A stretch of 64,000 nt of DNA from an uncultured Gammaproteobacteria bacterium (GCA_964351225.1 CAYGNG010000007.1:2590-66589), one strand, 5' to 3'. Numbered from the stretch's first letter, positions 1-46,154 are shown. Notes: generated by a model not told the origin, from the sequence alone. Numbers and translations: made by a program.

Positions 1-929
1 TCCTCCTTTGCCCGCTTGTCGAAGTAATTCTTATTCTCAATGAAATTACTGCTGTAACGCGCGTGAAATAAGGCCTGTCCATAGAGCGTAAGTTTACTTC
101 GCAGCTTGCACTTTTCATCCGACACGGGAATCAAGGGTTGATTTCCATAGTAATCAAAAAAAACAATTGCCCGATACACCGCGTTAAATTTTTTCATGAG
201 CGATGGATCATTCATGGTTTTTTTAGCTTCTTTGATGAAGTTCTCGTAGCCTTGATATTCCTCGCCAAGTATCGACTTTAGTTTATTCAACCCCTGGGCA
301 GAATAAAATAAATTTCCAAGAAGGGTAGTCAATTCACGGATATTTTCTGTGCTTGGGGTATTTGGATAGTTTTCTTTATATGTGGTGCAACAAACAGTCC
401 CTTGGTCAAACATTTTGTCATTATATATGCTATTAATGAGTCCTGGTAAACGAGCAATCTCTGACTCAGCAAACCTTTCCAATTGATCCGCCATTGCTTT
501 TTCATCCGCCATCTTGACGGTTGGCTCGATCCCAAGCGCTGAAAATAATTCCTTGCCATCGAAGTAGGCTCTGGCTTTTATCATGGGATTAAGTTCGTTA
601 TTCAGAATAATGTTACAGATAGCCTGGTTAAGCGTTGTGACTCCCGTCGTGACCTCTAAATTCAACAGCTCGCGCTTAAGCCATTTACTTTCATTTGTTT
701 TGTCGTTAAGGTAGGAGACAACAGCGGTAACCGAATCATGAAAATTTTCGTAAATATGCCCATCGCTCCCGCGCGTTGTTGATTTATGAAGCTGATCCAA
801 TGAATCCATAAGCTTGTTAAAAAGGTCCCGCTCTAGATCAGTGGGATTACTTGCCCCTTCTTCTGGGTTGTTGATGACTTGTTTCTTGCCCCATTTTTGA
901 TTTCTTTTACTTTTACTATACATAAACAT
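1..929 (-). CDS. Hypothetical protein, partial. N-terminal 309 codons are in the window; the C-terminus runs off the 5' edge.
   Basis: I checked triplet by triplet: the minus-strand frame from ATG 929 is open through position 3. An in-frame upstream stop sits at 945-947. There is no recognisable domain. The 76-aa ORF at 329..559 lies in another frame inside it. Confidence 0.5.
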   Translation of the reverse strand, partial: MFMYSKSKRNQKWGKKQVINNPEEGASNPTDLERDLFNKLMDSLDQLHKSTTRGSDGHIYENFHDSVTAVVSYLNDKTNESKWLKRELLNLEVTTGVTTLNQAICNIILNNELNPMIKARAYFDGKELFSALGIEPTVKMADEKAMADQLERFAESEIARLPGLINSIYNDKMFDQGTVCCTTYKENYPNTPSTENIRELTTLLGNLFYSAQGLNKLKSILGEEYQGYENFIKEAKKTMNDPSLMKKFNAVYRAIVFFDYYGNQPLIPVSDEKCKLRSKLTLYGQALFHARYSSNFIENKNYFDKRAKE

Positions 930-1027
930 AATTAAATCGACCTGTTAAAATTGAAAAGACGGGCACAGTCTAACACCAGAACCTTAAGTGGATATTAATT
1001 ATACAAGCTGATTGCGTGATGGGTGGC

Positions 1028-1219
1028 TTAATGAACGGTATGGCGCTCAATCGAGATGATCTCTCTTGCTTCGAGCAGAGAAAGCTCATGGTAAATTTGC
1101 GCGGCAGATAAACCGGTTGCTTGCGAGATGGTGTCTATTAGTGACGGAGTAAGCACCCCGCCAATACCAGGCATAGCAAGCTCAGAATGTACTGTGATAA
1201 TAGTAATCGCTCTATCCAT
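1028..1219 (-). CDS. Small helix-turn-helix (winged-helix-like) regulator, about 63 aa
   Basis: The C-terminal 63 aa of the 108-aa ORF (MDRAITII...ISQATGLSAAQIYHELSLLEAREII) look like an HTH. The N-terminal 45 aa of the listed ORF are low-complexity and probably untranslated. It is divergent from the SDR/E1 module. Confidence 0.4.
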   Translation of the reverse strand: MDRAITIITVHSELAMPGIGGVLTPSLIDTISQATGLSAAQIYHELSLLEAREIISIERHTVH

Positions 1220-1347
1220 AATCACCCCACCGTATTCCGCCCTATGCCGAATATATCGACTTAAAAGACAAAGACTTGAATCGAATAAGAGGAAAATAGT
1301 TGCTACAATGCAACAAAAGCAACGACTCAAAGAAAGTGGGGAAAAAC

Positions 1348-2103
1348 ATGCCAAAAACCTGGGGGTTACAAAATAAATTTGCGCTGATTTTTGGGGTAAA
1401 CCAAGGCGTGAGTATCAGCCTGGTTGAGACATTTTTAAATTTGGGTGCAACGCTTTGGATCGTTGGCAACGATCACACTCGATTAGAGTATCTCATCGAC
1501 TCGGCGCCACCGGAAAAAAAAGATTTTCTGCAAACGACCTATATTGAAACACTCAATAAAAAATCGATTGCTCATTTTTTTGATGAAACCTTTGCATCCA
1601 TCCAGCAAATAGATGTTTTAGTTAATATTACCTCCCTATCGACACGCAAATCCATGTTGGCTTATTCCGTCGATGAGTTAGAAGCAACATTGCAAAAACA
1701 GCTCGTCAATTATTTTGTTATTTGCCAACGCAGCTATCAATATATGCAAAAACCCACACCCAGCAGCATCATTAATCTCTTATCAATCCATGGCGTGCTC
1801 CATGCCGCGGATGCTTCAATCGACGGTATGTTTAAATCTGCCCTGATTAATTTAACCAAATCGTTAGCTTGCGAGTGGGGCAAGCACAACATCCGCGTTA
1901 ACTCCGTGCTCGGTGGTTTAACGCATCATGAAAAAATGGGTGCCGGATCAGCGCAGTGGGTTTCCACCACCATTGCAAAATCGCCGCTGCGGCGATTATG
2001 TGAACCAGAAGAGATAGCTAATGCCGTCAGTTTCTTAGCAATGGATGCGGCTTCTTGCATTACGGGTCACTGCCTCTTAGCTGATGCGGGCATTAACCTT
2101 TGA
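1348..2103 (+). CDS. SDR-family oxidoreductase, atypical. The glycine motif is degenerate and the catalytic Tyr is not evident.
   Basis: The C-terminal region resembles SDRs (NIRVNSVLGGL, SFLAMDAASCITGHCLLADAG). The N-terminus has ALIFGVNQGVS in place of TGxxxGxG. The start is moved to the ATG at 1348, which is preceded by GGGGA. Confidence 0.6.
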   Translation: MPKTWGLQNKFALIFGVNQGVSISLVETFLNLGATLWIVGNDHTRLEYLIDSAPPEKKDFLQTTYIETLNKKSIAHFFDETFASIQQIDVLVNITSLSTRKSMLAYSVDELEATLQKQLVNYFVICQRSYQYMQKPTPSSIINLLSIHGVLHAADASIDGMFKSALINLTKSLACEWGKHNIRVNSVLGGLTHHEKMGAGSAQWVSTTIAKSPLRRLCEPEEIANAVSFLAMDAASCITGHCLLADAGINL

Positions 2104-4299
2104 ATGGAGGATTTTCTCGATGATGTCTTGCTGGTTAGGCAACACGGTTTGCCAAGAATCTCCCGTTGGAATAAAACTATCGCAACCGGTGATCCGCTCA
2201 ATTTTAGGAGGCTCAGGTAATCGCTCTAAAATATTGGCGATTAACGCCTCGCTCACACTGCCACTTGAACGCCCCTCATCCACGATTAACACATATTTTT
2301 TATCTTTTATTTTAGGTAATAACGCATCCAAGGGCAGCGGCGCTAACCAATGCAAATCGATCACGGCGACAGAAATTTCATGGTCATTCCGTAAAATTTC
2401 AGCGGCTTGTTGCGACAGATAGCAACCATTGCCATAAGAAATAATAGCAAGTTCATCTGAAGCGCCATGCTGTGTGACCTCACCATAAACCATTTCCTCA
2501 TGCAATTCTGGATAGGTACATAACCACCGATTATCTCCTTTATCGAGAAAGTCTTTGGTCATATACAAAGCAATGGGTTCTAAAAACAAAACAATGCGCT
2601 GCTCAATATACGCCAACCGAACACAGGTTCGTAACAGTTTTACCGCATCGGCACCGTTGCTTGGACACGCAACAATAACGCCTGGCAAATCTCTTAATGC
2701 GGCCGTTGAGTTGTCATTATGAAAATGACCACCGAATCCTTTTTGATAACCTAAGCTCGCTATGCGTACGACCATGGGATTGGTGAATTGTTTATTGGAA
2801 AAAAATGACATTGTCGCTGCTTCACCGCGAATTTGATCTTGAGCATTATGATAATAGGCTAAAAACTGTATCTCTGGTATTGGTAAAAAACCATTATGTG
2901 CCAGGCCAATGGCATGACCGAGAATGGTCTGCTCATCTAAAAGTGTATCAAACACACGCCGCCTGCCAAATCGTGCTTGTAAATCCGCTGTTACGCGATA
3001 AACTCCGCCTTTTTGACCAACATCTTCACCAAAAATAACCATATTCTTATACTGCAGCATGAGATCCGTCAAAGCATAATTAATAAGCTGGCACATATTA
3101 CGAGGTGTATTTAACATTTTAAACTGCGTGCCAAATAACTTTTCTCTCTGTATTTTTTCGGGAATACTCGGGACCGATTTTTGCAACGGGTTAGGAATAA
3201 GACTTGCCATAACCGCTTCGGCCGTTGTCAATTTGGGTTCGAATAAAACCTCATCGGCCAATTGTTTAATGGTGGCTCGCAGTGACTCATATTTGTCGAT
3301 GATTTCTTGCGGTGACAACCACGCTTCATCGACACAAATTCGCGCAGAATGTAATAGTGGATCATTAGCCTCATCGGCTCGAATTGCCTGCTCCGTACGA
3401 TAATGCAACTCAACATCGGACCCGGCATGGCCTAACAAGCGTATGGTTTTCATATGTAAGAACACCGGAATTTTTTTCTTTCTTGCCAAATGGAACGCTT
3501 GATGGGCTGCCCAAACCACATTCGGTAAATGTAAGCCATCGGCAGCGATATAATGAAACAATGCGTGTTTAAATTTGGTTTCGATCCAAGATTTCGGGGT
3601 TGGCACGGAAATGCCCGTGCCATTGTCTTCACAAACAAAAACAATGGGCAAAGGATACTGGGCATGTCGGATCCACTCGGCTGTGTTAAAAGCCCCCAAA
3701 GCGGTACTGTGATTAACTGACGCATCACCAAAACTGCAGATTATCACACTGTCATCCGATAACACCCTATCGATATTAAGCTCTCGTGCCCGTTGAATTG
3801 AAAATGCGGTGGCAACGGCTTTAGGAAGATGCGAAGCAATCGTCGAAGTTTGTGGTGGGATGAGCATTTCCTTTGAACCGAATACTTTATGCCGACCACC
3901 TGAAGCCGGATCTTGTTTTGAAGCAACAAAAGATCGCAGTAAATCGCGTAAGATATTGGGATTGTTATATTTTAAGCTGCGCTGTATAAAAAATGCGGCA
4001 CTTCGGTAATGTAAAAATGACATATCCTGTATACCCGAAGCCAAGGCAATCGCGGCATTGCCTTCATGCCCGCTGCTTCCTATTGTATAAAAGGACTGAC
4101 CGGATTCTTTCAACGCTCTGGCAATAATATCCAGCAACCGGCTTGCCATCTGCGACTCAAAAAGCGATAAAAAAACATCCCTCGATAAGTTCGCTTGTGC
4201 AACCGTTGTTTGACTCGTTGCTGGCGGGAATTTTTCAGCAAGAACCGAGTCAACAAATTGCTTATCGACCACTTCAGCACGATTTAAATTTATGCCCAT
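2077..4299 (-). CDS. TPP-dependent 2-oxoacid dehydrogenase E1 component, fused alpha/beta subunits (740 aa)
   Basis: The N-terminal half carries a TPP-binding motif (SFGDASVNHSTALGAFNTAE...VCEDNG). The C-terminal half is transketolase-like beta (FGEDVGQKGGVYRVT, FDTLLDEQTILG, ACPSNGADAVKLLR). Confidence 0.8.
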   Translation of the reverse strand: MGINLNRAEVVDKQFVDSVLAEKFPPATSQTTVAQANLSRDVFLSLFESQMASRLLDIIARALKESGQSFYTIGSSGHEGNAAIALASGIQDMSFLHYRSAAFFIQRSLKYNNPNILRDLLRSFVASKQDPASGGRHKVFGSKEMLIPPQTSTIASHLPKAVATAFSIQRARELNIDRVLSDDSVIICSFGDASVNHSTALGAFNTAEWIRHAQYPLPIVFVCEDNGTGISVPTPKSWIETKFKHALFHYIAADGLHLPNVVWAAHQAFHLARKKKIPVFLHMKTIRLLGHAGSDVELHYRTEQAIRADEANDPLLHSARICVDEAWLSPQEIIDKYESLRATIKQLADEVLFEPKLTTAEAVMASLIPNPLQKSVPSIPEKIQREKLFGTQFKMLNTPRNMCQLINYALTDLMLQYKNMVIFGEDVGQKGGVYRVTADLQARFGRRRVFDTLLDEQTILGHAIGLAHNGFLPIPEIQFLAYYHNAQDQIRGEAATMSFFSNKQFTNPMVVRIASLGYQKGFGGHFHNDNSTAALRDLPGVIVACPSNGADAVKLLRTCVRLAYIEQRIVLFLEPIALYMTKDFLDKGDNRWLCTYPELHEEMVYGEVTQHGASDELAIISYGNGCYLSQQAAEILRNDHEISVAVIDLHWLAPLPLDALLPKIKDKKYVLIVDEGRSSGSVSEALIANILERLPEPPKIERITGCDSFIPTGDSWQTVLPNQQDIIEKILHSKVNARIS

Positions 4300-4802
4300 G
4301 AGGATGAACCAAACAATTCCAATTGCGACGATGAAACTGGTATAGGATGCGGGCTAACACTTGCTCTAATTGCTTCACCCTGAAACTCATCTATTGTTCT
4401 TAGATCGATATATTGACTGCACTTGTTTCTATGCGGCCGTTGCAGTGCTTGAGAGAGTAAAGAAATAACTTGTTGTGTTATTTTATCGCTTAGATACCGA
4501 TCTTGAGTTTGAAAAAAAAGCGGTTCGCGATCAGCAATATGACAAAATATGATTTTAGGGAATTCCAATTTTAGTCTGGTGTAGCTGAGCACACTGTTTG
4601 CCTCTTCTTCTTTGCTCATATCCACAATTAAAATTTCAGATTGATCAATTATTTTTTTTAATTCATCAATCTGTGACGGGTAATAGGTATCTAAAGACAG
4701 TTTTTTTACGACGGCGCCAAGGTTTGAAAAAATTTGTCCCACCCACGATGACCAAGCATAGGTATGGCTTAAATCAAGAACACGATAGAAACTGCTTAAC
4801 AT
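4290..4802 (-). CDS. Hypothetical protein, possibly a degenerate receiver-like domain
   Basis: A 170-aa ORF overlaps the E1 start by 10 nt, suggesting an operon. A weak CheY-like pattern is present (ILIVDMS...PKIIFC). Confidence 0.4.
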   Translation of the reverse strand: MLSSFYRVLDLSHTYAWSSWVGQIFSNLGAVVKKLSLDTYYPSQIDELKKIIDQSEILIVDMSKEEEANSVLSYTRLKLEFPKIIFCHIADREPLFFQTQDRYLSDKITQQVISLLSQALQRPHRNKCSQYIDLRTIDEFQGEAIRASVSPHPIPVSSSQLELFGSSSWA

Positions 4803-4924
4803 AGTACTACCCTACTTAATTGCATTTGTGAAATACTGATCACGACCTTTCATTAGAAAAGACGGCTAGTATATACTAAAACGTTTAACGGCTTTAAAAC
4901 TATTTGTAACTCGTTAGCAAAAAC

Positions 4925-6154
4925 ATGAAAATATCATTACCGATCCCTAATTTGTTCAATCGATTGCAAAGCTTGCTGGATCCAATCAAGCCAACACCAC
5001 AATTGATGCAAACTTTACAAATTGGCAATCGTCTTGATGCCATTGTGCTCGGGCAACCAAAACTTGGCGTAACACATTTAGCTATCAATGGCGTTGTTGT
5101 TACCGTTAACTCGGGTATGTTGCAACTCACTCCCGGTCAAGGGCTGCAATTATTAGTGGCTGATCGGCAAGATCCGATTAAGTTGAGGATCTTAACCGAT
5201 TTATCGCAGCCAAACTCCATAAGCCAATTTCTGAAACAAGCATTACCCTTCCAAAATTCTTCATCGTGGTTGCTCACGAACTTATTATACTTGTCACAAA
5301 CACAACATACTAAATCCATGAATTTTGTACCAAGAGAGATTATTGCGCTCTGTCAAAAGCTCTTGCGTCAACTCCCCACGCGCAAATCCGTATCCACCGC
5401 CGATGGCTTAAAAAAAGCCTTGCTAAAAAGTGGTGCTTTTTTTGAAAAGCAATTGTTCTCTTGCCAAGATCCCTTACAACAACAGATAACCTTACGAGAA
5501 GATTTCAAAGCACTACGAATTCAACTTGAAAACGTACTTGAACAATTTCATGACGAATCGACAAGCCCGGAGTTAAAAACTTCCCCAATACGACTGCCAC
5601 AAACGCCACCGCCATTGAAACAAACCATGCCAACCGCACAAGGGCAAGTCGAAGCCACTGTCTTGCTCCTGGAAAAAAATGCAGACGCACTGATTATTGA
5701 ATTACTCGCTCAAGTTAAATCCAGCCTAGCAAGAACCCAGTTAACCCAATTGGCGTCTTTGTCATCTGAAAATCAAATGATACCGCTGTGGCTATTTGAA
5801 TTAGCTGTTAAAGAGCAAGCGCGTATTGATTTATTCCAAATTGAAATAGAACAAAACCGTAAAGAAATCGAGGATCCAGAGCAAAGCGCATGGTCAATCC
5901 GGATGGCATTTGATTTAGCCAATCTTGGCCCTTTGCAGGTCATCATGAAATGTCAGCGGTCGCAAATTTCTGTATTTTTTTTAACGGCTTTGCCCGAAAC
6001 GCGTGAAAAAATCAACCAAGACATTGAACACCTAACGCAATCATTTAAAGCACAGGGACTTCTACTAAAAGATGTGCACTGTGTAATTGGCAATCTTGAT
6101 AGAAAAAACAACCCACCGAGCCCTGATGGAACAATACTCAATGAAAAAGCATAA
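4925..6154 (+). CDS. fliK: Flagellar hook-length control protein FliK
   Basis: The N-terminus is Pro/Gln-rich and low-complexity. The C-terminal Flg_hook-like domain reads WSIRMAFDLANLGPLQVIMKCQRSQISVFF. The gene sits in the flagellar locus. Confidence 0.65.
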   Translation: MKISLPIPNLFNRLQSLLDPIKPTPQLMQTLQIGNRLDAIVLGQPKLGVTHLAINGVVVTVNSGMLQLTPGQGLQLLVADRQDPIKLRILTDLSQPNSISQFLKQALPFQNSSSWLLTNLLYLSQTQHTKSMNFVPREIIALCQKLLRQLPTRKSVSTADGLKKALLKSGAFFEKQLFSCQDPLQQQITLREDFKALRIQLENVLEQFHDESTSPELKTSPIRLPQTPPPLKQTMPTAQGQVEATVLLLEKNADALIIELLAQVKSSLARTQLTQLASLSSENQMIPLWLFELAVKEQARIDLFQIEIEQNRKEIEDPEQSAWSIRMAFDLANLGPLQVIMKCQRSQISVFFLTALPETREKINQDIEHLTQSFKAQGLLLKDVHCVIGNLDRKNNPPSPDGTILNEKA

Positions 6155-6434
6155 CGACCAATCTGAAATCGCCATCGCCTTGTCTTACGATGGTGAAAAT
6201 GCCCCAATCATCCGTGCAAAAGGTGAGGATGAATGGGCGATGCGTATCGTAGAAATTGCCAAACAGCATAATGTGCTTATTCATCAAGACCCGGTGCTTA
6301 CCAAAATTCTTTCGCAGCTCGCACTTGGTGAAGAAATTCCGGAATTTTTATATGTGAGCATTGCGACTATCATTGCGTTTGCCTACAAGCTGAACAACAA
6401 GTGTCCGCCTCATCGAAAAGATCTATCCTCATAA
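6141..6434 (+). CDS. FlhB C-terminal domain-like protein (short FlhB/YscU paralogue)
   Basis: MKKHNDQSEIAIALSYDGENAPIIRAKGEDEWAMRIVEIAKQHNVLIHQDPVLTKIL matches the FlhB cytoplasmic-domain pattern. The start is the ATG at 6141, which overlaps the fliK stop. Confidence 0.7.
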   Translation: MKKHNDQSEIAIALSYDGENAPIIRAKGEDEWAMRIVEIAKQHNVLIHQDPVLTKILSQLALGEEIPEFLYVSIATIIAFAYKLNNKCPPHRKDLSS

Positions 6435-6545: not shown

Positions 6546-7934
6546 ATGTTAATCAATCACACCCCATTCGTAAGCTTTTGCAAACAAGACAGCCCCTTCG
6601 CCAAGCAATTTGAAACAAATCGGGTATTAAATATTGCGACGCTTATTCAGCTGAAAAATTTTACCGAACGTTGCACGAACACAGAGCTGCATTCCGTTAT
6701 CATTAACGCGGAATCATCTCCCGATTGCGATTTTTTAATATTTCATTTTTTATTTCAACTTTTAATAATACTCGAGGAGAAGCCGACCCGCCTCAACGTA
6801 ACCGAGGAACAGGTCGCATTTACACTGAAAAGCAAATTTCAAATGAAGGGTTTTTTTACCCATAAATTTCTTGCGATGACGGCTGGCTTATACAATATCC
6901 AATTACCAGTTCGCCTTCCGATCGCTATCGATGAATATCACATTTTTTTAAAAGAGCTGATGTATCTTGATGATTTTGTTAAAGCATCCCCCACCATTCT
7001 TAACGAGATAACTTTTTTAAACAAATACCTTCACGCAGTTACCGGCTATACAGATATTTTGAGCTATCCGTCTCGGAGTGGGAGCTTACTTATTTGGGGG
7101 CATTCTCTGTCCAAAATCATTCAGGCAACCTGCGATTATATCCATACTTATTCTGAAGAAAAACCGGAACAACAGTGGCTGGTGGACAAAAATCGAGCCA
7201 TGCTTAACGCCTTTAAAAATTCCCTGATGGCGTCTCCCCGCGACAGCAAGCAAGAAACACTTTTTAAAAACCTCAATGAAAAATTTCGAGCCGTTATTGC
7301 GGCTCATTGTGAAGATAGTTGTCTTGCAGAAATCGATCTAACCCCTGGAAATGTTAGAAATCTCACACCGTCACAAGTGGCTTATCGCGCAAATTTACAA
7401 AGCATTCCAACCTTGGTGGGGTTGGCTGATTGCATTGCGCAATATCTTCAAAGATCCAATCCCAACCGAAGCAATTGCAATCCCAACATATTACAACGCG
7501 ATATTACTTTATCTTGGCTGCAAGTTATACTCACGGCGACACCCAACCCCGAGTTTACTGGAACATGGGAAGAACATTTATTTCATCTCATGATGGCTAG
7601 TTGCAACCCAACACTCATGTATAACGACCATCATGGAAGACCTTGCTTGGATAGCTGGCTCGGAAAAACATTTACACGCACCGCCCAAGCGATGATTTGC
7701 AAAACGCGCTTATACTTTTTAAACAACATATTAAACCATGAAATTTCACACCTAGATCCAAATGAGGCAATGGCTCGGTTACACCGCGTTAAAACGAATG
7801 TAATTTTCTGCCGGCATACGAGTTCTTTCTGGGGCGGAGGATTTGGTCGTACAGAACCGCTCTGTATCGCTGACAAAAAAATTGCTAGCATACAAAAAAC
7901 GTCTCATGTTCCCATGCGAAATCAGCGCTCATAA
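6546..7934 (+). CDS. Hypothetical protein, 462 aa, no recognisable domain
   Basis: The ORF is long and clean, with codon usage like its neighbours. It is convergent with the DUF2802 gene and overlaps it by 13 nt. Confidence 0.5.
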   Translation: MLINHTPFVSFCKQDSPFAKQFETNRVLNIATLIQLKNFTERCTNTELHSVIINAESSPDCDFLIFHFLFQLLIILEEKPTRLNVTEEQVAFTLKSKFQMKGFFTHKFLAMTAGLYNIQLPVRLPIAIDEYHIFLKELMYLDDFVKASPTILNEITFLNKYLHAVTGYTDILSYPSRSGSLLIWGHSLSKIIQATCDYIHTYSEEKPEQQWLVDKNRAMLNAFKNSLMASPRDSKQETLFKNLNEKFRAVIAAHCEDSCLAEIDLTPGNVRNLTPSQVAYRANLQSIPTLVGLADCIAQYLQRSNPNRSNCNPNILQRDITLSWLQVILTATPNPEFTGTWEEHLFHLMMASCNPTLMYNDHHGRPCLDSWLGKTFTRTAQAMICKTRLYFLNNILNHEISHLDPNEAMARLHRVKTNVIFCRHTSSFWGGGFGRTEPLCIADKKIASIQKTSHVPMRNQRS

Positions 7935-30846: not shown

Positions 30847-31227
30847 TTATTTCGGTTGAAAACGAATCTCAGCTGGCATATTGTCACATGATTTACGAGC
30901 GGCAAGAATTCTCAACCACCGATTCCGCATCTGATACGCTTGCACTTCGATACGCTGCGACTCAGAAAAGTCCATAAAAAACCACGGCACAATAAAAAAA
31001 GCTCCAGCAACCCCTAAAGTGATATTGCGTAGATCTTTATTTTCGCCAGGGATCATGTTAAGAATTTCTGTTTGATTATCCAGGATTTCATGCAAAATTT
31101 GCGTGCACGTCAACTGCTCATCACCGACTTGATACTGTTCGATCGGATGCGCACTCCTCCCGGCACAAGCAACGCAACTACTTATAATCATCAAACTGAT
31201 TAAGACCAATTTTCTAACGCTATTCAT
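30847..31227 (-). CDS. Small lipoprotein, hypothetical
   Basis: The lipobox reads [15 protein letters not shown]. The gene occupies the slot held by pabC in E. coli. The start is trimmed to the ATG at 31227, which overlaps the fabF stop by 8 nt. Confidence 0.4.
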
Positions 31228-32461
31228 ATTGTTTGAAAACCAATGACGCGTTTGTTCCACCAAAGCCAAACGAATTTGATAAGGCCACTTTTATTTTTCG
31301 TGATTGCGCCACGTGCGGTACAAAGTTTAAATCGCAGTTTGCTGTTGGGTTATCTAGATTTATTGTTGGTGGCGCCACTTGATCGCGAATGGCTAATACC
31401 GAAAAAATGGCCTCAACTGCCCCAGCGGCTCCTAATAAGTGCCCCGTCATAGACTTAGTCGAGCTGACAGCAAGGGCATAAGCGTGTTCACCAAAAACGG
31501 TTTTTATTGCCAATACTTCCAATTCATCTCCCGCTAAGGTCGAAGTGGCATGCGCATTAATGTAATCAACTTCTTCGGGTTGCAGTTTCGCATCTGTAAT
31601 GGCGTTGCGCATAGCATTGGCTGCACCGGTTCCCGTTTGATCCGGTAAAGTAATATGAAATGCATCTGCACTTTGGCCAAATCCAAGCAATTCTGCGTAG
31701 ATTTTGGCACCGCGCTTTTTAGCAAATTCATACTCCTCTAATACCAGAACCCCTGCGCCATCACCCAAGACAAATCCATCGCGATCGCTATCCCAGGGTC
31801 TGCTGGCTTTGGTCGGTTCATCGTTTCTTTTGGAAAGTGCTCGTAATGCCGAAAACCCAGCAACACCAAGCGCAGAAGAAGCTTTTTCCGCACCACCAGC
31901 AAGCATAATATCGGCATCACCATAAGCCACAGCGCGAGCAGCGTAACCGATATTATGGGCCCCTGTCGTACACGCACTGACAACCGAAATGTTTGGTCCT
32001 TTTAAACCATAGCGCATCGATACTCGCCCTGGGAGCATGTTAATAATGATTGAAGGAATGAAGAAAGGAGACAGCTTTTTAGGTCCTTGCTCTAACAAAA
32101 CCGTATACGCTTTTTCAATTCCAAGCAAACCACCAATACCAGAACCAATGGCCACACCGGCTCGTGAACCACGCTCTGCATCGATCGTTAAATTGGCGTC
32201 AGTCATTGCCTCAATAGCAGCGGCCATCCCAAATTGAATAAAAGGATCTATTTTACGCAACTCTTTCGCATCAAAATATTGGATCGGATCAAAGTTTTTA
32301 ACTCGCGCTGAAATCTTTGTGCCTAACTCACTTACGTTGAAATCTTGGATCACGCCAACGCCACTTTTGCCTTGCTTAACATTTCCCCAAGTATCAGAAA
32401 CATTCAAACCAAGCGGAGAGATAATTCCCATGCCTGTTACCACAACTCGACGACCCTGCAT
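31220..32461 (-). CDS. fabF: 3-oxoacyl-ACP synthase II
   Basis: The Cys-His-His catalytic triad context is present. The C-terminus reads [11 protein letters not shown]. Confidence 0.95.
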
Positions 32462-32492
32462 CGATTACTCCTAATCACGCGTTACTTGGCGA

Positions 32493-32747
32493 TCACTCAC
32501 CCGATTGATCTTTTTTCATTCTTTTTTCGATATAGTCAATGGCCTGTTGGATAGTGGTGATTGATTCCGTTTCTTCATCTGGAATATCCGTTTCAAATTC
32601 TTCCTCTAGCGCCATAACCAATTCCACCGTATCCAAAGAGTCTGCGCCCAAATCATCTACAAATGAAGATTCATTGCTAACTTCGTCTTCTTTAACACCA
32701 AGTTGTTCAATAACGATTTTTTTAACTCTTTCTTCAACGCTGCTCAT
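32493..32747 (-). CDS. acpP: Acyl carrier protein
   Basis: The phosphopantetheine attachment site motif is [19 protein letters not shown]. Confidence 0.95.
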
Positions 32748-32819
32748 AATTTAGAGATCCTTAAATTTATAGTTAACATTAAGCTTGAATAATCCACGAT
32801 TATAAATTGTGAGGCATAC

Positions 32820-33575
32820 TTAATCCATAAACATTCCACCATTAATGTGAATTGTTTGCCCAGTAATATAGCTAGCAAAATCCGATACTAAGAAAGTAAC
32901 CAAGTCTGCAACCTCTTTTGGCGTCCCCAGACGTTGCAGAGGAATTTTTTGTAGTAATATTTTTGCCTGGTCTTCCGCTAATGCTTTGGTCATGTCGGTT
33001 TCAAAATATCCAGGTGCCACTACATTAACGGTAATTTTCCGACTACCAACCTCCGCGGCTAAGCTCCGAGAAAAACCAGCTAACCCGGCTTTTGCAGCGG
33101 CATAATTGCATTGCCCAGGATTACCAAAACTCCCGACCACTGAACCAATATTAATAATTCTGCCCCAGTGGGCTTTTATCATAGCCCTTAAACATCTTTT
33201 TGAAACACGAAAAATACCAGATAAATTCGTGGCAAGCACGTCATCCCACTCCGCGTCCTTCATCCTTAACAATAAATTGTCACGGGTAATGCCGGCATTA
33301 TTCACAAGAATAGCTGGCATTCCTGGGTTTGAGTTGATTGCATCAAATGCGGCAGATATGGATTGAGGATCGGCCACATTCATCATGATCCCAATCCCAT
33401 GCCAACCATGGGATTGGATCAATTGATTGATTTTATCAACGCCCGCTTCCGACGTCGCTGTGCCAATTACGACAGCGCCGGCTTCTGCCAGTGCCATCAA
33501 AATCGCTTCGCCTAAACCTCGAGTCGCCCCAGTGACTAATGCAATTTTATTATGTAATTTTACGTGCAAACTCAT
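32820..33575 (-). CDS. fabG: 3-oxoacyl-ACP reductase
   Basis: SDR motifs TGATRGLG and YAAAKAG are present. The gene sits between fabD and acpP. Confidence 0.95.
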   Translation of the reverse strand: MSLHVKLHNKIALVTGATRGLGEAILMALAEAGAVVIGTATSEAGVDKINQLIQSHGWHGIGIMMNVADPQSISAAFDAINSNPGMPAILVNNAGITRDNLLLRMKDAEWDDVLATNLSGIFRVSKRCLRAMIKAHWGRIINIGSVVGSFGNPGQCNYAAAKAGLAGFSRSLAAEVGSRKITVNVVAPGYFETDMTKALAEDQAKILLQKIPLQRLGTPKEVADLVTFLVSDFASYITGQTIHINGGMFMD

Positions 33576-34543
33576 TAACCCTCATCTCCCACTGCTCGAT
33601 TCGCGGTAATGGCATGAATACTCTGGTGCATGCCCGTCGTTGTATCAATGTTAAAAGTAACCACTGTCTTGGCTATTCGCTTATTTAAACCCGCTAAAAC
33701 TTGATTAGGACCACATTCAACGAATTGAACAATCCCTTGTGTGTGCGCAGCGGTGACACAGCTGGTCCAGCGCACTGGGCAATATAATTGCCGAATCAGT
33801 GCCTTTCTAATTGCTTGTGGCGCCGTTTCAATCGATACATCCACATTGTTAATCACCGGAACTTGTGGCACTGATAGTAAAATGCCTTCTAGTGTCTGTG
33901 CAAATTCCTTTGCTGCTGCTGCCATGAGTGAACTATGTGAAGGAACACTGACCGGCAATAATTTTGCAATTTTGGCACCCTGTGCTTTCGCTAAACGGAT
34001 GGCTCTTGCGATAGCGGGTGATTTTCCAGCAATCACAACTTGCAATGGGGCATTATAATTAGCCGGCATCACAACCTCATTTTCAGTTGACGATTGCTTA
34101 CAAATTAACTCAACAACCGCATCCTCTAATCCGATAATAGCAGCCATCGCGCCTTCCCCCATTGGAACGGCCTGCTGCATCAACTCCCCTCGTTTCGCGA
34201 CAATCGCTACGGCATCGACAAAAGACATGGCTTTGGCACACACTAAAGCAGAATACTCCCCTAAACTATGCCCTGCCATGTGAGTAGGCATCGTGTTTGT
34301 CAAGCTCATCCAAACCCGCCACAAAGCAACACTCGCTGTTAAAATTGCTGGCTGGGTATACTGCGTCATATTCAACTGGTTTTCTGGCCCATCTTGAACT
34401 AACCGCCATAAATCGTATTGCAACACGTGAGAGGCTTCGTCAAAAGTGCTTTTAATCTGTGGATATGACTGAGCAATGTCATGCAACATCCCCAACGACT
34501 GCGAACCTTGCCCTGGAAAGATAAACGCCAACTTCACACTCAT
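33575..34543 (-). CDS. fabD: Malonyl-CoA-ACP transacylase
   Basis: The active-site motif GHSLGEYSALV is present. Confidence 0.95.
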   Translation of the reverse strand: MSVKLAFIFPGQGSQSLGMLHDIAQSYPQIKSTFDEASHVLQYDLWRLVQDGPENQLNMTQYTQPAILTASVALWRVWMSLTNTMPTHMAGHSLGEYSALVCAKAMSFVDAVAIVAKRGELMQQAVPMGEGAMAAIIGLEDAVVELICKQSSTENEVVMPANYNAPLQVVIAGKSPAIARAIRLAKAQGAKIAKLLPVSVPSHSSLMAAAAKEFAQTLEGILLSVPQVPVINNVDVSIETAPQAIRKALIRQLYCPVRWTSCVTAAHTQGIVQFVECGPNQVLAGLNKRIAKTVVTFNIDTTTGMHQSIHAITANRAVGDEG

Positions 34544-34553
34544 ACACTTCCCA

Positions 34554-35507
34554 TCAATAAACGATTACCGCAGCGCCCCAAACCAATCCACCACCAAATG
34601 CCTCCAGCAACATGCGCTCGCCCTTTTTGATAGTACCTTGCCTTAACGCTTCGTCTAGTGCAAGTGGTATCGAAGCGGCAGAAGTATTACCGTGCTTTTC
34701 AATCGTCAAAATAACTCTATCCATGCTCAAGTGTAATCGTTTTGCGACAGATTGAATAATTCGTATGTTTGCTTGATGCGGAACCAGCCAATCAATATCC
34801 CCATGTGATAATTCATTCGCTTCCAGCGCTTCGGTAACCGAGTCTTGCAAATGCGTTACCGCATATTTAAAAACATCGTTACCTTTCATTTGAATAGAGG
34901 TAAGTCCTTTGGCTTTAAAATGAGGAAAAGGTAAATTAAGAATGTGTTGCAAATTACCGTCGGCGTGCAAATGTACCGATTCAATGCCTGGTGCTTTAGC
35001 GGCAGACAGTATCATCGCACCAGCGCCATCACCAAACAAAACGCACGTTGTTCGGTCATGCCAATCAACCACTCGAGATAAGCAGTCTGCACCCACAATC
35101 AGCACATGGTGAACAGCGCCATTTCGAATAAACTGATCAGCAATCCCTAAGGCATACACAAAGCCTGCACAAGCGACTGTAATATCGAATGCAATACAAT
35201 CGCCAACCGCTAAAGCCGCCTGAATACTGCAAGCGGTATTGGGAATTAAGTTATCTGGTGTTGTCGTAGCAACAATTATCATATCGAGGTCTGAGGCTGT
35301 CAGCTGGGCCATGGCTAATGCCTCCTTGGCCGCGCCAACAGAAAGAGAAACCAATGTTTCATCCTGTGAAATCACATGCCGTTGTTTTATACCCGTGCGA
35401 GAGTATATCCACTCGTCTGTTGTATCAACCAACTGGGCCAAATCCTGGTTTGTTAAAATTTTTTTTGGTAAAGCCGTGCCCGTCCCTGAAATCATGGCAT
35501 ATGTCAT
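34554..35507 (-). CDS. fabH: 3-oxoacyl-ACP synthase III
   Basis: The active-site Cys context is ACAGFVYAL. The C-terminus reads GGGLVWGAAVI. Confidence 0.95.
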   Translation of the reverse strand: MTYAMISGTGTALPKKILTNQDLAQLVDTTDEWIYSRTGIKQRHVISQDETLVSLSVGAAKEALAMAQLTASDLDMIIVATTTPDNLIPNTACSIQAALAVGDCIAFDITVACAGFVYALGIADQFIRNGAVHHVLIVGADCLSRVVDWHDRTTCVLFGDGAGAMILSAAKAPGIESVHLHADGNLQHILNLPFPHFKAKGLTSIQMKGNDVFKYAVTHLQDSVTEALEANELSHGDIDWLVPHQANIRIIQSVAKRLHLSMDRVILTIEKHGNTSAASIPLALDEALRQGTIKKGERMLLEAFGGGLVWGAAVIVY

Positions 35508-36529
35508 AAGGTCGGCCTATTCAAAAGGATTTGCACTTTTTCATCTATTTGCGCGGTCAAATCTTTCTGAACATACGCATAGGCATTTATCACCGCATTC
35601 GCCACAGCCAAAACATTAGCACCACCGTGACTTTTCACAACGATCCCTTGCAACCCCAACAAACAAGCCCCATTGTAACGCGACGGATCTAACCGCTTGC
35701 GCAGTCGATTTAATACCTGTCTACTCAATAGCCAAGCAAACTGGGAGTACATGTCGCGCTTAAATTCTTCACGAATAAATTTGCGAAATAAATTGATAAC
35801 CCCTTCGCTGGCTTTCAACATCACATTTCCAACGAAACCATCGCAGACAACCACATCACATGCCCCCTGATAAACATCATGGCCTTCTACAAATCCAATA
35901 TAGTTCAATCTGGGCTCTTGCTCTAACATTTCCGCGGTTTGTTTTACCACTCGATTCCCTTTTATTTCTTCTGCACCAACATTCAGCAATCCAACACTGG
36001 GTCGCGGAATGCCCATTTCTAAACTGGCAATGACGCTACCCATAATTGCAAATTGAAACAAATGTTCTGGGGTACAATCGACATTAGCTCCCAGGTCTAA
36101 AAAGCGTATAAACGCTTTACTGTGGCTCGTTGGTAATATTGCAGAGATAGCCGGCCTATCGATGCCTGGTATCATTTTTAACACAAATCGGGCCGTTGCC
36201 ATCAGCGCACCGGTATTTCCCGCGCTCACGCAAGCACAGGCAGCTCCCGTTTTGACTAAGTCAATGGCAAGACGCATGGAGGAGTTTTTTTTATTACGTA
36301 AGGCACTAGCCGGCGATTCATTCATGGCAACCACTTCTTCAGCGTGCACAATTTGTATCCGACCGGAATATTTTCTCGCTTTTCGCCCAAGGGCTTTTTT
36401 GACGAGATTTTCTTGGCCAACCAAGAGAATGTTTAATTGCGAATGAGCCGTCATCGCTCGGAGGGCGCCCGGAACAATCACATCCGGGCCACGATCCCCA
36501 CCCATGGCATCAACAACAATTGAAACCAT
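35504..36529 (-). CDS. plsX: Phosphate acyltransferase PlsX
   Basis: A 341-aa PlsX that overlaps fabH by 4 nt. Confidence 0.95.
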   Translation of the reverse strand: MVSIVVDAMGGDRGPDVIVPGALRAMTAHSQLNILLVGQENLVKKALGRKARKYSGRIQIVHAEEVVAMNESPASALRNKKNSSMRLAIDLVKTGAACACVSAGNTGALMATARFVLKMIPGIDRPAISAILPTSHSKAFIRFLDLGANVDCTPEHLFQFAIMGSVIASLEMGIPRPSVGLLNVGAEEIKGNRVVKQTAEMLEQEPRLNYIGFVEGHDVYQGACDVVVCDGFVGNVMLKASEGVINLFRKFIREEFKRDMYSQFAWLLSRQVLNRLRKRLDPSRYNGACLLGLQGIVVKSHGGANVLAVANAVINAYAYVQKDLTAQIDEKVQILLNRPTL

Positions 36530-44741: not shown

Positions 44742-46154
44742 TTAGGGATTTTTTGCTGAAGCGCTCTCTGTTACTTCGCTTTCCTCCAATTCCTCTTTTT
44801 GTTGCAATTCAGATAATACGTCATCAAATAAGCCTAATAGCAAGTGACCATTTGGCTTTTTCCTTATTACTTCTTCTTTATTGCGAATTAGAGTGCTTTT
44901 TTTCGTTTTTTCAGCCGCAACAATTTGGCGGATAGTAAATGAAAGAAAGTCAAAACTTTTTTTATCGAGATTAGGATCTCTATTTTTAAGTTTCTTCTTA
45001 ATATCCGTAAGCGATCCCAGCTCGGCTTCATCGTCGAGTTTGCGTTTAAAAATACCGAGCTCGGAGAGTCGTTTTGCTTCCTCTTTTTGATCGGCTTGTG
45101 CCGCTAATCGCGCTTGGGCTTGAGTATAATCAACCACTCCTCTTATTTCCTGTGGTGAGCAGGTTGAATAAATACTATTTAGAATAAAAAGATCCTCTAA
45201 CAATGCTTTCCGACGGTCATCTGTCACACTCAACAGATGAGATACAATGCTGGGCCCATCAGCTGGGTGCAATGAAAAATTCCCACCAAAATAACACAGC
45301 GCGCGGATTGCATCGAGGTCCGGTCGATTTCCAGCAATATAAGCAAAAATCTCACGATATAATGCGGTTTTGCCATCAACTAATTCATTCGGATCCGTAA
45401 GACCTTTTTCACTAATACGCACAGGAATACTGTCGCCAAATAGCGTGGGCGCACCGCGCAAGAGCTCCATCTCATGCAGTGAATGCGTATTAGCACTCCT
45501 GCTGTTTGACACAAGCTGTGCAGACTGGCCAAGTTTAAATTCCGCCTCTTGTTGCAAGCCTTTTTCAATCTGTTTTCCTTTAGAGCGACGATCGGCAACA
45601 CCGTACTTTTGGCAGATATCGTTCGCTTGATCAGGGCGATTGGCTGCGTGTAACAAATCGACAACATTCGCGCCATCTTTCCCGACACGAGAGAATCCCG
45701 CACCATAATCATGCAAATAACCCAAAAGATAAAATTTTCTTTGTTTAGCGGCTAAATTTGCTGGTTGTTCCCGGCAACGATCCACTGAGTAAAAATTGAA
45801 ATCAACACCACGCTGATATAAACAAGCAAATAATTTATTGATTATCGCGACTGTCGACCGATGGGGAAGCAAGGGCGATCGATGAATAACGTAGTCTAAA
45901 ATATCGGCATCAGCAATTATCTGCTTGTTTTCTTGCAGTATCCAATCAAGTACCGGCAAAAGCTTGCTGGTCACGCCCTCAGATAGCGCTACTGCTCGAT
46001 CGTTAGCGCCAGCCTCTTCTAAAAATTGATCCGCGTACTGTTCGACAAGGTAACGAACATCGGGAACCGATATGCGGTACCCTGAAGCAATCAACTGATT
46101 GGGATCAAAAGAATTTTCGCCGGTAACTAACCCATTGATAATGGCTTTAAACAT
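44742..46154 (-). CDS. Hypothetical protein, 470 aa, with a Glu-rich C-terminal tail
   Basis: No domain is recognisable. The C-terminus reads LSELQQKEELEESEVTESASAKNP. The stop abuts the TPK stop with a 0-bp spacer. Confidence 0.5.
   Translation of the reverse strand: MFKAIINGLVTGENSFDPNQLIASGYRISVPDVRYLVEQYADQFLEEAGANDRAVALSEGVTSKLLPVLDWILQENKQIIADADILDYVIHRSPLLPHRSTVAIINKLFACLYQRGVDFNFYSVDRCREQPANLAAKQRKFYLLGYLHDYGAGFSRVGKDGANVVDLLHAANRPDQANDICQKYGVADRRSKGKQIEKGLQQEAEFKLGQSAQLVSNSRSANTHSLHEMELLRGAPTLFGDSIPVRISEKGLTDPNELVDGKTALYREIFAYIAGNRPDLDAIRALCYFGGNFSLHPADGPSIVSHLLSVTDDRRKALLEDLFILNSIYSTCSPQEIRGVVDYTQAQARLAAQADQKEEAKRLSELGIFKRKLDDEAELGSLTDIKKKLKNRDPNLDKKSFDFLSFTIRQIVAAEKTKKSTLIRNKEEVIRKKPNGHLLLGLFDDVLSELQQKEELEESEVTESASAKNP

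Follow-up and report, generated by a model that had tools for sequence, protein, structure and literature searches.

The 64,000-nt stretch of DNA analysed here (the window) comes from an uncultured Gammaproteobacteria bacterium (GCA_964351225.1 CAYGNG010000007.1:2590-66589) and carries a gene for a 740-amino acid (aa) protein in which the alpha and beta parts of a thiamine pyrophosphate (TPP)-dependent 2-oxoacid dehydrogenase E1 are fused in one chain. From the gene context of its relatives, we consider it about an even chance (probability roughly 0.5) that this protein is the E1 component of the conversion of 2-oxoadipate to glutaryl-CoA, that the lipoyl-acyltransferase (E2) and the dihydrolipoamide dehydrogenase (E3) are borrowed in trans, and that the surrounding module has been eroded in the present genome. 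The same context makes 2-oxoadipate or a close C6 2-oxo-dicarboxylate the most likely substrate, and we infer both the use of E2 and E3 in trans and the activity of the enzyme in the present organism. The gene itself is an ordinary orthologue of a conserved Legionellales gene in a partly eroded module.

The chain contains, in this order, the Pfam domains E1_dh (1e-22), Transket_pyr (1e-21) and Transketolase_C (9e-14), all exceeding the Pfam gathering scores, in agreement with a previous sequence-only reading of this DNA that had called the protein a fused alpha-beta E1 (all coordinates are in Table 1). The E1_dh domain aligned to the E1-alpha chains of branched-chain 2-oxoacid dehydrogenase (BCKDH) from T. 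thermophilus (4e-13) and human (1.5e-12); among solved relatives the alpha half matched BCKDH E1-alpha at ~1e-12 and the beta half matched E1-beta of pyruvate dehydrogenase (PDH) or BCKDH at ~1e-36. The residues G191-D-A...D225-N226 align with the TPP/Mg2+ signature GDG-X(25-30)-NN, and D192 and N226 are invariant in the clade, as are R287, G290, H291 and D295 of the alpha active-site loop. On the beta side, H527 falls on the His of 'ELHSDS' in G. stearothermophilus E1-beta (alignment 6e-37). The three catalytic positions H291, E456 and H527 correspond in alignments to those of solved E1s and do not vary among 87 clade members; in the alignment of these members, the window E1 keeps 168 positions conserved at ≥97% and deviates at only 10 columns of ≥90% conservation. 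The gene is intact and looks like a working one. The Transketolase_C part is, in canonical enzymes, the docking site for the E2 subunit-binding domain.

Set against the alpha2beta2 E1s of BCKDH and PDH (T. thermophilus 1UM9, P. putida 2BP7, G. stearothermophilus 1W85, human 1DTW), the protein shares all three domains, as well as the TPP/Mg motif, the His of the alpha loop and the Glu and His on the beta side, and its decarboxylation and reductive-acylation chemistry is presumably that of these enzymes. It differs in being fused in one chain, in its low similarity to these enzymes in both halves and in the clade sequence EDNG in place of (R/E)NN. The genes of the clade, unlike the control operons described below, never cluster with E2 or E3 genes. 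A fused single chain also occurs in the Bacteroidota-type 'alpha-ketoacid dehydrogenase subunit alpha/beta' (Parabacteroides distasonis, H15), which is only ~27% identical and forms a separate clade. A further difference from the canonical enzymes is the clade-invariant SGGRHKVxGS (E1 residues 134-142; 3874-3900, minus strand), which stands where canonical E1-alpha has GKGRQMPxH; together with an invariant H97 before the YR motif it brings in clade-specific basic residues (H97, R136, H137 and K138), and these might bind a distal carboxylate.

The search for E2 and E3 was calibrated on two control operons, one for BCKDH (alpha, beta, E2 and lpdA; Comamonadaceae plasmid record) and one for PDH (S. 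aureus record). The three motif scans, for E2, E3 and lipoyl domains, matched these control proteins, and the BCKDH operon showed the expected clustering of alpha, beta, E2 and lpdA. With two genuine E2 queries, E2b and E2p, and two genuine E3 queries, tblastn gave no match at E≤1e-3 in the window and 98 further loci (1.35 Mb in all), and the motif scans likewise gave none there, which bears out the previous statement that the window holds neither gene. The ten window open reading frames (ORFs) of E2 or E3 size encode other proteins (a major facilitator superfamily (MFS) transporter, FabF, NAPRTase, DapA, AnmK, an SLT-LysM protein, RNase E and PlsX) or have no Pfam match, and none is an E2 or E3. 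An operon joining E1 with E2 and E3 was thus found neither in the window nor in any of the 98 loci, and the separation from E2 and E3 is a property of the whole E1 clade rather than of the window alone.

All Legionella and Legionellales metagenome-assembled genomes carry orthologues at 57-62% identity, and others are found in Alteromonadales, Ruegeria and Actinomycetota, with a relative in Nonomuraea at 46.6% identity. A metagenome scan with the E1 alignment returned more than 545 relatives, from which 80 loci with 49-57% identity were kept. Neighbours were counted by neighbour clustering and tblastn in 86 E1-carrying loci that span GC contents of 0.31-0.69. A glutaryl-CoA dehydrogenase (GCDH) gene lies on the same strand at -1 to +3 of E1 in 41 of the 86. 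In every Legionellaceae-like locus examined, the gene of a 385-aa acyl-CoA dehydrogenase (ACAD) comes directly after E1, often with overlap; in L. adelaidensis, for example, the E1 and GCDH genes overlap. Compared with solved structures, the Legionella ACAD scored 1e-119 to 1e-135 with glutaryl-CoA dehydrogenases and 1e-65 with isovaleryl-CoA dehydrogenase, and it is 54-58% identical to the ACADs beside E1 in Alteromonadales, Shewanella and Ruegeria. The commonest neighbour is a ~345-aa FabD-like acyltransferase (70 of 86 loci), encoded directly downstream on the same strand in 56 loci by ORF clustering. Less frequent are a LysR-family regulator (c10; 9 of 86), mostly divergent upstream and at -1 of GCDH-E1 in five loci, and a homocitrate-synthase-type gene (6 of 86) between the acyltransferase and GCDH genes, the homocitrate synthase call being marginal (TIGR02146, 418 bits against a cutoff of 413.55).

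Individual loci combine these partners in compact operons. Cognaticolwellia beringensis has GCDH-E1-acyltransferase with a divergent LysR gene, Shewanella aestuarii has GCDH-E1-acyltransferase, and two Ruegeria megaplasmids have overlapping genes in the order aminotransferase-GCDH-E1-acyltransferase, again with a divergent LysR gene. By its match to PDB 6f35 (1.6e-120), the aminotransferase of Ruegeria belongs to the Asp-aminotransferase (dicarboxylic amino acid) type. In three loci (L064, L057 and L077), an L-piperideine-6-carboxylate (P6C) dehydrogenase gene comes right after E1-acyltransferase; the full-length copy in L064 scored 806 bits against a cutoff of 730, and the partial copies in L057 and L077 share its best match.

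These conserved partners point to glutaryl-CoA and lysine catabolism, not to acetoin dehydrogenase, BCKDH or PDH. The recurring neighbours are successive enzymes of the path from aminoadipate semialdehyde through 2-aminoadipate, 2-oxoadipate and glutaryl-CoA to crotonyl-CoA, and P6C dehydrogenase, aminotransferase and GCDH account for three of its four conversions; the remaining one, from 2-oxoadipate to glutaryl-CoA, is the kind of reaction that an E1 carries out. We therefore prefer a 2-oxoadipate-type E1 over the branched-chain label given in databases, which has support neither from curated models nor from gene context. In the proposed mechanism, E1 would decarboxylate the 2-oxoacid on TPP, and the glutaryl group would pass to the lipoyl carrier of an E2 encoded elsewhere, with E3 likewise acting in trans, giving glutaryl-CoA, which GCDH would convert to crotonyl-CoA. 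Partnership with a distant E2, already considered in the sequence-only reading, is the most economical mechanism. Bacteria would then have an alpha-beta-type counterpart to the step that DHTKD1 performs in mammalian lysine and tryptophan catabolism.

In the window, the module would survive in reduced form, with a glutarate-type CoA-transferase cut down to a 170-aa remnant and the Legionella-type GCDH gene after E1 not present in the stretch. The 170-aa ORF overlaps the E1 ATG by 10 nt, as had been noted before, and the two genes remain translationally coupled through this overlap. A word search with the ORF returned no homologue; an exhaustive HMMER search found a single relative, the 302-aa protein P0122 (E 4e-7; pairwise BLASTP 2e-15). 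P0122 matches CoA_transf_3 at 8e-37, its best NCBIfam match is succinate-glutarate CoA-transferase and its PDB matches include human SUGCT. In the syntenic metagenomic locus L011, it occupies the very slot of the 170-aa ORF, directly before E1. The ORF aligns to residues 9-189 of P0122 only, and P0122 itself is without ~40 aa of a middle segment that is alignable in solved CoA-transferases and that we take to carry their catalytic Asp. The direct Pfam match of the ORF to CoA_transf_3 is weak (E 0.0018, under the gathering score), and the ORF falls short of a full-length (~400 aa), two-domain CoA-transferase. We read it as a truncated, highly diverged CoA-transferase remnant. The sequence-only reading had seen a weak receiver-like pattern here; this assignment was dropped, as no Response_reg domain was matched in Pfam or NCBIfam and the sole relative is a CoA_transf_3 protein. 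A single-sequence AlphaFold2 (AF2) model of the ORF was too poor for use (predicted local distance difference test (pLDDT) score, 40).

The glutarate-type CoA-transferase of the window lineage fits the same metabolic node as the partners of the clade. A route from glutarate to glutaryl-CoA by a CoA-transferase and on to crotonyl-CoA by GCDH has been described (PMC5974017).

Two known systems invite comparison. In mammals, DHTKD1 borrows E2o (DLST) and E3 from the 2-oxoglutarate dehydrogenase (OGDH) complex; the reaction proposed here is the same, with a dedicated E1 that has no E2 or E3 of its own and feeds GCDH, and the trio of E1, GCDH and family III glutarate CoA-transferase (SUGCT) of the mammalian pathway is genetically linked in the clade. 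DHTKD1 is a homodimeric OGDH-type E1, whereas the window E1 and all of its PDB matches are of the alpha-beta type, which would make the two functional analogues at most, with the function on the bacterial side judged from context. The glutarate module of Pseudomonas and Azoarcus consists of gcdH, a family III CoA-transferase gene and a divergent gene for the LysR-type regulator GcdR. The clade likewise has a divergent LysR gene and a GCDH-led operon, and in the window lineage a glutarate-type CoA-transferase gene adjoins E1, but most clade members have E1 and the FabD-like acyltransferase in place of the CoA-transferase.

Several points weigh against the assignment to 2-oxoadipate. The sequence of E1 is about equally far from solved BCKDH and PDH E1s, with no specificity residues mappable, and the evidence consists of gene context in relatives that are 50-62% identical: the link to 2-oxoadipate lies in their GCDH, P6C dehydrogenase, Asp-type aminotransferase and homocitrate-synthase-like genes, and no such linkage is seen in the window. 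For the homocitrate-synthase-type gene, an isopropylmalate-synthase subfamily model outscores TIGR02146, yet stays under its own cutoff. No GCDH gene or remnant was detected by tblastn downstream of E1 in the window. With this and a degenerate CoA-transferase gene, the pathway is perhaps incomplete, or E1 has perhaps been redeployed. The FabD-like partner is not found in the window, where only the housekeeping fabD (33575-34543) was matched at 24-26% identity, and a partner E2 has been identified in no genome. Finally, branched-chain fatty acids abound in Legionella membranes, for which a source of branched-chain acyl-CoA is needed, and this keeps the database label plausible.

That label would make the protein a branched-chain 2-oxoacid dehydrogenase E1 (EC 1.2.4.4) with E2 and E3 elsewhere, supplying branched acyl-CoA primers or serving Val/Leu/Ile breakdown. 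Beyond the membrane composition, it agrees with the database names of the orthologues, '2-oxoisovalerate dehydrogenase E1, alpha and beta fusion' or 3-methyl-2-oxobutanoate dehydrogenase, and with the presence of BCKDH E1 chains among the best solved matches. The name oivA (2-oxoisovalerate dehydrogenase) has also been used in L. pneumophila (PMC3364954). However, no curated BCKDH model was matched, the only hits being PDH-type E1 models at 73-127 bits against cutoffs of 321-454. Nor was an E2, an E3 or a recognised branched-chain amino-acid catabolic gene seen beside ~90 clade members, whereas the canonical BCKDH control operon does keep its genes together, and the adjoining ACAD is of the glutaryl-CoA type, not of the isovaleryl- or isobutyryl-CoA type. 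We consider a branched-chain function unlikely on this balance.

The FabD-like protein may offer another way to account for an E1 that never travels with E2. Its genes (for example L092:10001-11092, L094:9190-10227 and L082:10169-11203, among loci L015-L098) encode proteins with no Pfam match at 1e-3. A profile matched solved FabD chains at 8e-15, and the fabD and mdcH models were matched far under their cutoffs. The proteins retain GNSMG, with its Ser, and the His, and have Met in place of the malonyl-binding Arg; their more than 6,500 homologues are mostly named 'ACP S-malonyltransferase'. From the constant place after an E2-less E1, one may speculate about an acyl-transfer role. A bolder proposal is that the fused E1 and the FabD-like protein form a new kind of system that takes 2-oxoacids to acyl-CoA and supplies the missing bacterial conversion of 2-oxoadipate to glutaryl-CoA, with the FabD-like protein in the acyl-transfer role of E2, and that the Legionellales, including the present genome, are derived and have lost the acyltransferase. 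We regard this as doubtful. The FabD-like partner is also missing from the Legionella loci examined, and the Legionellales seem to do without it, at least locally.

Less probable again is that E1 in the present genome, though still an open reading frame, is what is left of a glutaryl-CoA module in decay, without a working pathway around it or recruited to another 2-oxoacid. The erosion described above speaks for such a fate, in that the CoA-transferase is down to 170 aa and its syntenic 302-aa version is already without part of its middle segment, GCDH is found in neither the window nor locus L011, and the place of GCDH is taken by a convergent gene for a short-chain dehydrogenase/reductase (SDR) that lacks the catalytic Tyr and the glycine motif. 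Against this, E1 is full length and has kept the 168 near-invariant positions and all catalytic residues, which argues for continuing purifying selection, and GCDH may lie elsewhere in the genome, beyond the 64 kb seen. A TPP decarboxylase or carboligase that acts alone, without E2, and has its product reduced by the adjoining SDR, an option raised by the sequence-only reading and consistent with the lack of E2 and E3 near any clade member and with the SDR beside E1 in the window, is very improbable and found no support in the context, as the SDR is convergent, devoid of the catalytic Tyr and the nucleotide-binding glycine motif and nowhere conserved with E1, the clade keeps without exception the His residues with which canonical E1s reductively acylate lipoamide, and the conserved partners are acyl-CoA enzymes.

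The E1 clade is broad and uncharacterised, it is probably mis-annotated, and its function is both interesting and testable. Our literature search found no paper on the fused E1 clade, on a bacterial 2-oxoadipate dehydrogenase or on the E1-acyltransferase-GCDH operon, although absence there is not proof. In the literature searched, oxidation of 2-oxoadipate to glutaryl-CoA is described for animals (DHTKD1), and the bacterial route found there from 2-oxoadipate runs instead through the oxygenase HglS (PMC7286885). If the assignment to 2-oxoadipate is true, a widespread alpha-beta-type E1 would fill this gap in bacterial lysine catabolism, and many labels such as '2-oxoisovalerate dehydrogenase', 'thiamine pyrophosphate-dependent enzyme' and 'MFS transporter' would be corrected. 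It also leads to a testable hypothesis on oivA, an L. pneumophila gene in which nonsense mutations were reported from two macrophage-adapted lineages; mutations in lysine biosynthesis arose independently in the same experiment, and no locus tag was given for oivA (PMC3364954). That oivA is the orthologue of the present fused E1 is our presumption. Two questions are raised by the clade as a whole, namely what serves as acyl acceptor for an E1 that never travels with E2, and what the FabD-like partner does. Regarding the labels, the name 'MFS transporter' is borne by several Legionella orthologues of E1 (P0059, P0072, P0073 and P0120), among them an L. pneumophila cluster of 172 members, and is evidently an annotation error for a fused E1.

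Table 1 Features of the fused E1 gene and its surroundings in the window.
Feature	Position	Strand	Basis or remark
Fused alpha-beta TPP-dependent 2-oxoacid dehydrogenase E1, 740 aa, intact	2077-4299	-	Pfam domains and clade conservation
E1 alpha-type (E1_dh) domain, residues 50-352	3244-4152	-	Pfam; BCKDH E1-alpha alignment
TPP/Mg2+ motif G191-D-A...E-D-N226, GDG-X-NN variant	3622-3729	-	Alignment to solved E1-alpha chains
Alpha active-site loop RLLGHAGSD with His291	3415-3441	-	Counterpart of human BCKDH 'IGHHSTSDD' loop by alignment
E1 beta-type pyrimidine-binding domain (Transket_pyr), residues 402-572	2584-3096	-	Pfam, alignment
Beta cofactor Glu E456 in LLDEQ	2917-2943	-	Alignment to solved E1s
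Beta active-site His527 in GGHFHNDN	2710-2733	-	Alignment to solved E1s
E1 beta C-terminal (Transketolase_C) domain, residues 608-711	2167-2478	-	Pfam
170-aa ORF, read as diverged N-terminal remnant of family III CoA-transferase	4290-4802	-	HMMER relative P0122, synteny
Atypical SDR	1348-2103 (alternative start 1300)	+	adh_short_C2 2e-36
Small ORF, 63 aa from Met46 of 108-aa ORF 1028-1354	1028-1219	-	Uncertain; divergent from SDR
fliK-like gene	4925-6154	+	Flg_hook 1e-12
flhB-C-terminal-like gene (flhB')	6087-6434	+	Bac_export_2 1e-17

The E1 operon lies at the edge of a flagellar locus, where the fliK-like and flhB'-like genes immediately adjoin it in divergent orientation and serve as synteny anchors. 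E1 stands beside fliK/flhB' also in L. pneumophila (L001) and in locus L011, which has the same order as the window (flhF-fleN-fliA-motA-motB-DUF2802 ... flhB'-fliK, then, divergently, the CoA-transferase gene and a 737-aa fused E1). The GC content of the E1 region matches its surroundings. The placement given by the sequence-only reading thus stands, whereas its view of the region as accessory does not, since synteny with L. pneumophila and L011 and the base composition rule out an accessory island.

The same reading had grouped E1 and the 170-aa ORF with the SDR and a small helix-turn-helix (HTH) protein, a module we rejected: none of ~90 related loci keeps the combination, and the SDR gene runs convergently to E1 and encodes a catalytically atypical protein. 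No SDR orthologue stands next to E1 in any of these loci, where the matches were generic SDRs at 21-29% identity, and the small ORF had no match. We take the SDR and the small ORF to be bystanders, not partners of E1. The degenerate Rossmann motif reported for the SDR is indeed present, the glycine motif being FGVNQGVS (1390-1413) rather than TGxxxGxG, and the catalytic Tyr is also absent and replaced by Asp175, so that YxxxK reads D175-G-M-F-K179 (SIDGMFK, 1816-1836). The protein keeps Ser, Lys179 and Asn of the N-S-Y-K tetrad and falls outside the classical SDRs. Its gene and E1 overlap at their 3' ends by 27 nt (2077-2103), which leaves no space for a terminator between the two, and a promoter and terminator scan of 900-5000 stayed at chance level. 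The HTH label of the small ORF has behind it a DprA_WH match under the Pfam threshold (E 0.002-0.007) and a low-confidence AF2 model (pLDDT 57), in which residues 25-35 and 39-48 form two helices, and was not confirmed; a winged-helix product is possible.

Between flhB' and the DUF2802 gene, the window has a 462-aa ORF (6546-7934, plus strand) with no Pfam or NCBIfam match. In relatives this slot is filled differently, by the genes of SidF and other proteins in L. pneumophila L001 and by that of a VWA protein in L011, and it appears to be a variable position inside the flagellar region. An open frame of at least 314 aa (3-944, minus strand) runs off the left edge of the window and had no E2, E3 or ACAD match in tblastn. 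No Pfam domain was matched at 1e-5 by two further large ORFs on the minus strand, at 44742-46154 (470 aa) and 59655-61517 (620 aa). A housekeeping fatty-acid synthesis cluster occupies ~31220-36529 on the minus strand, with FabF at 31220-32461, the fabD-like gene at 33575-34543 and PlsX at 35504-36529.

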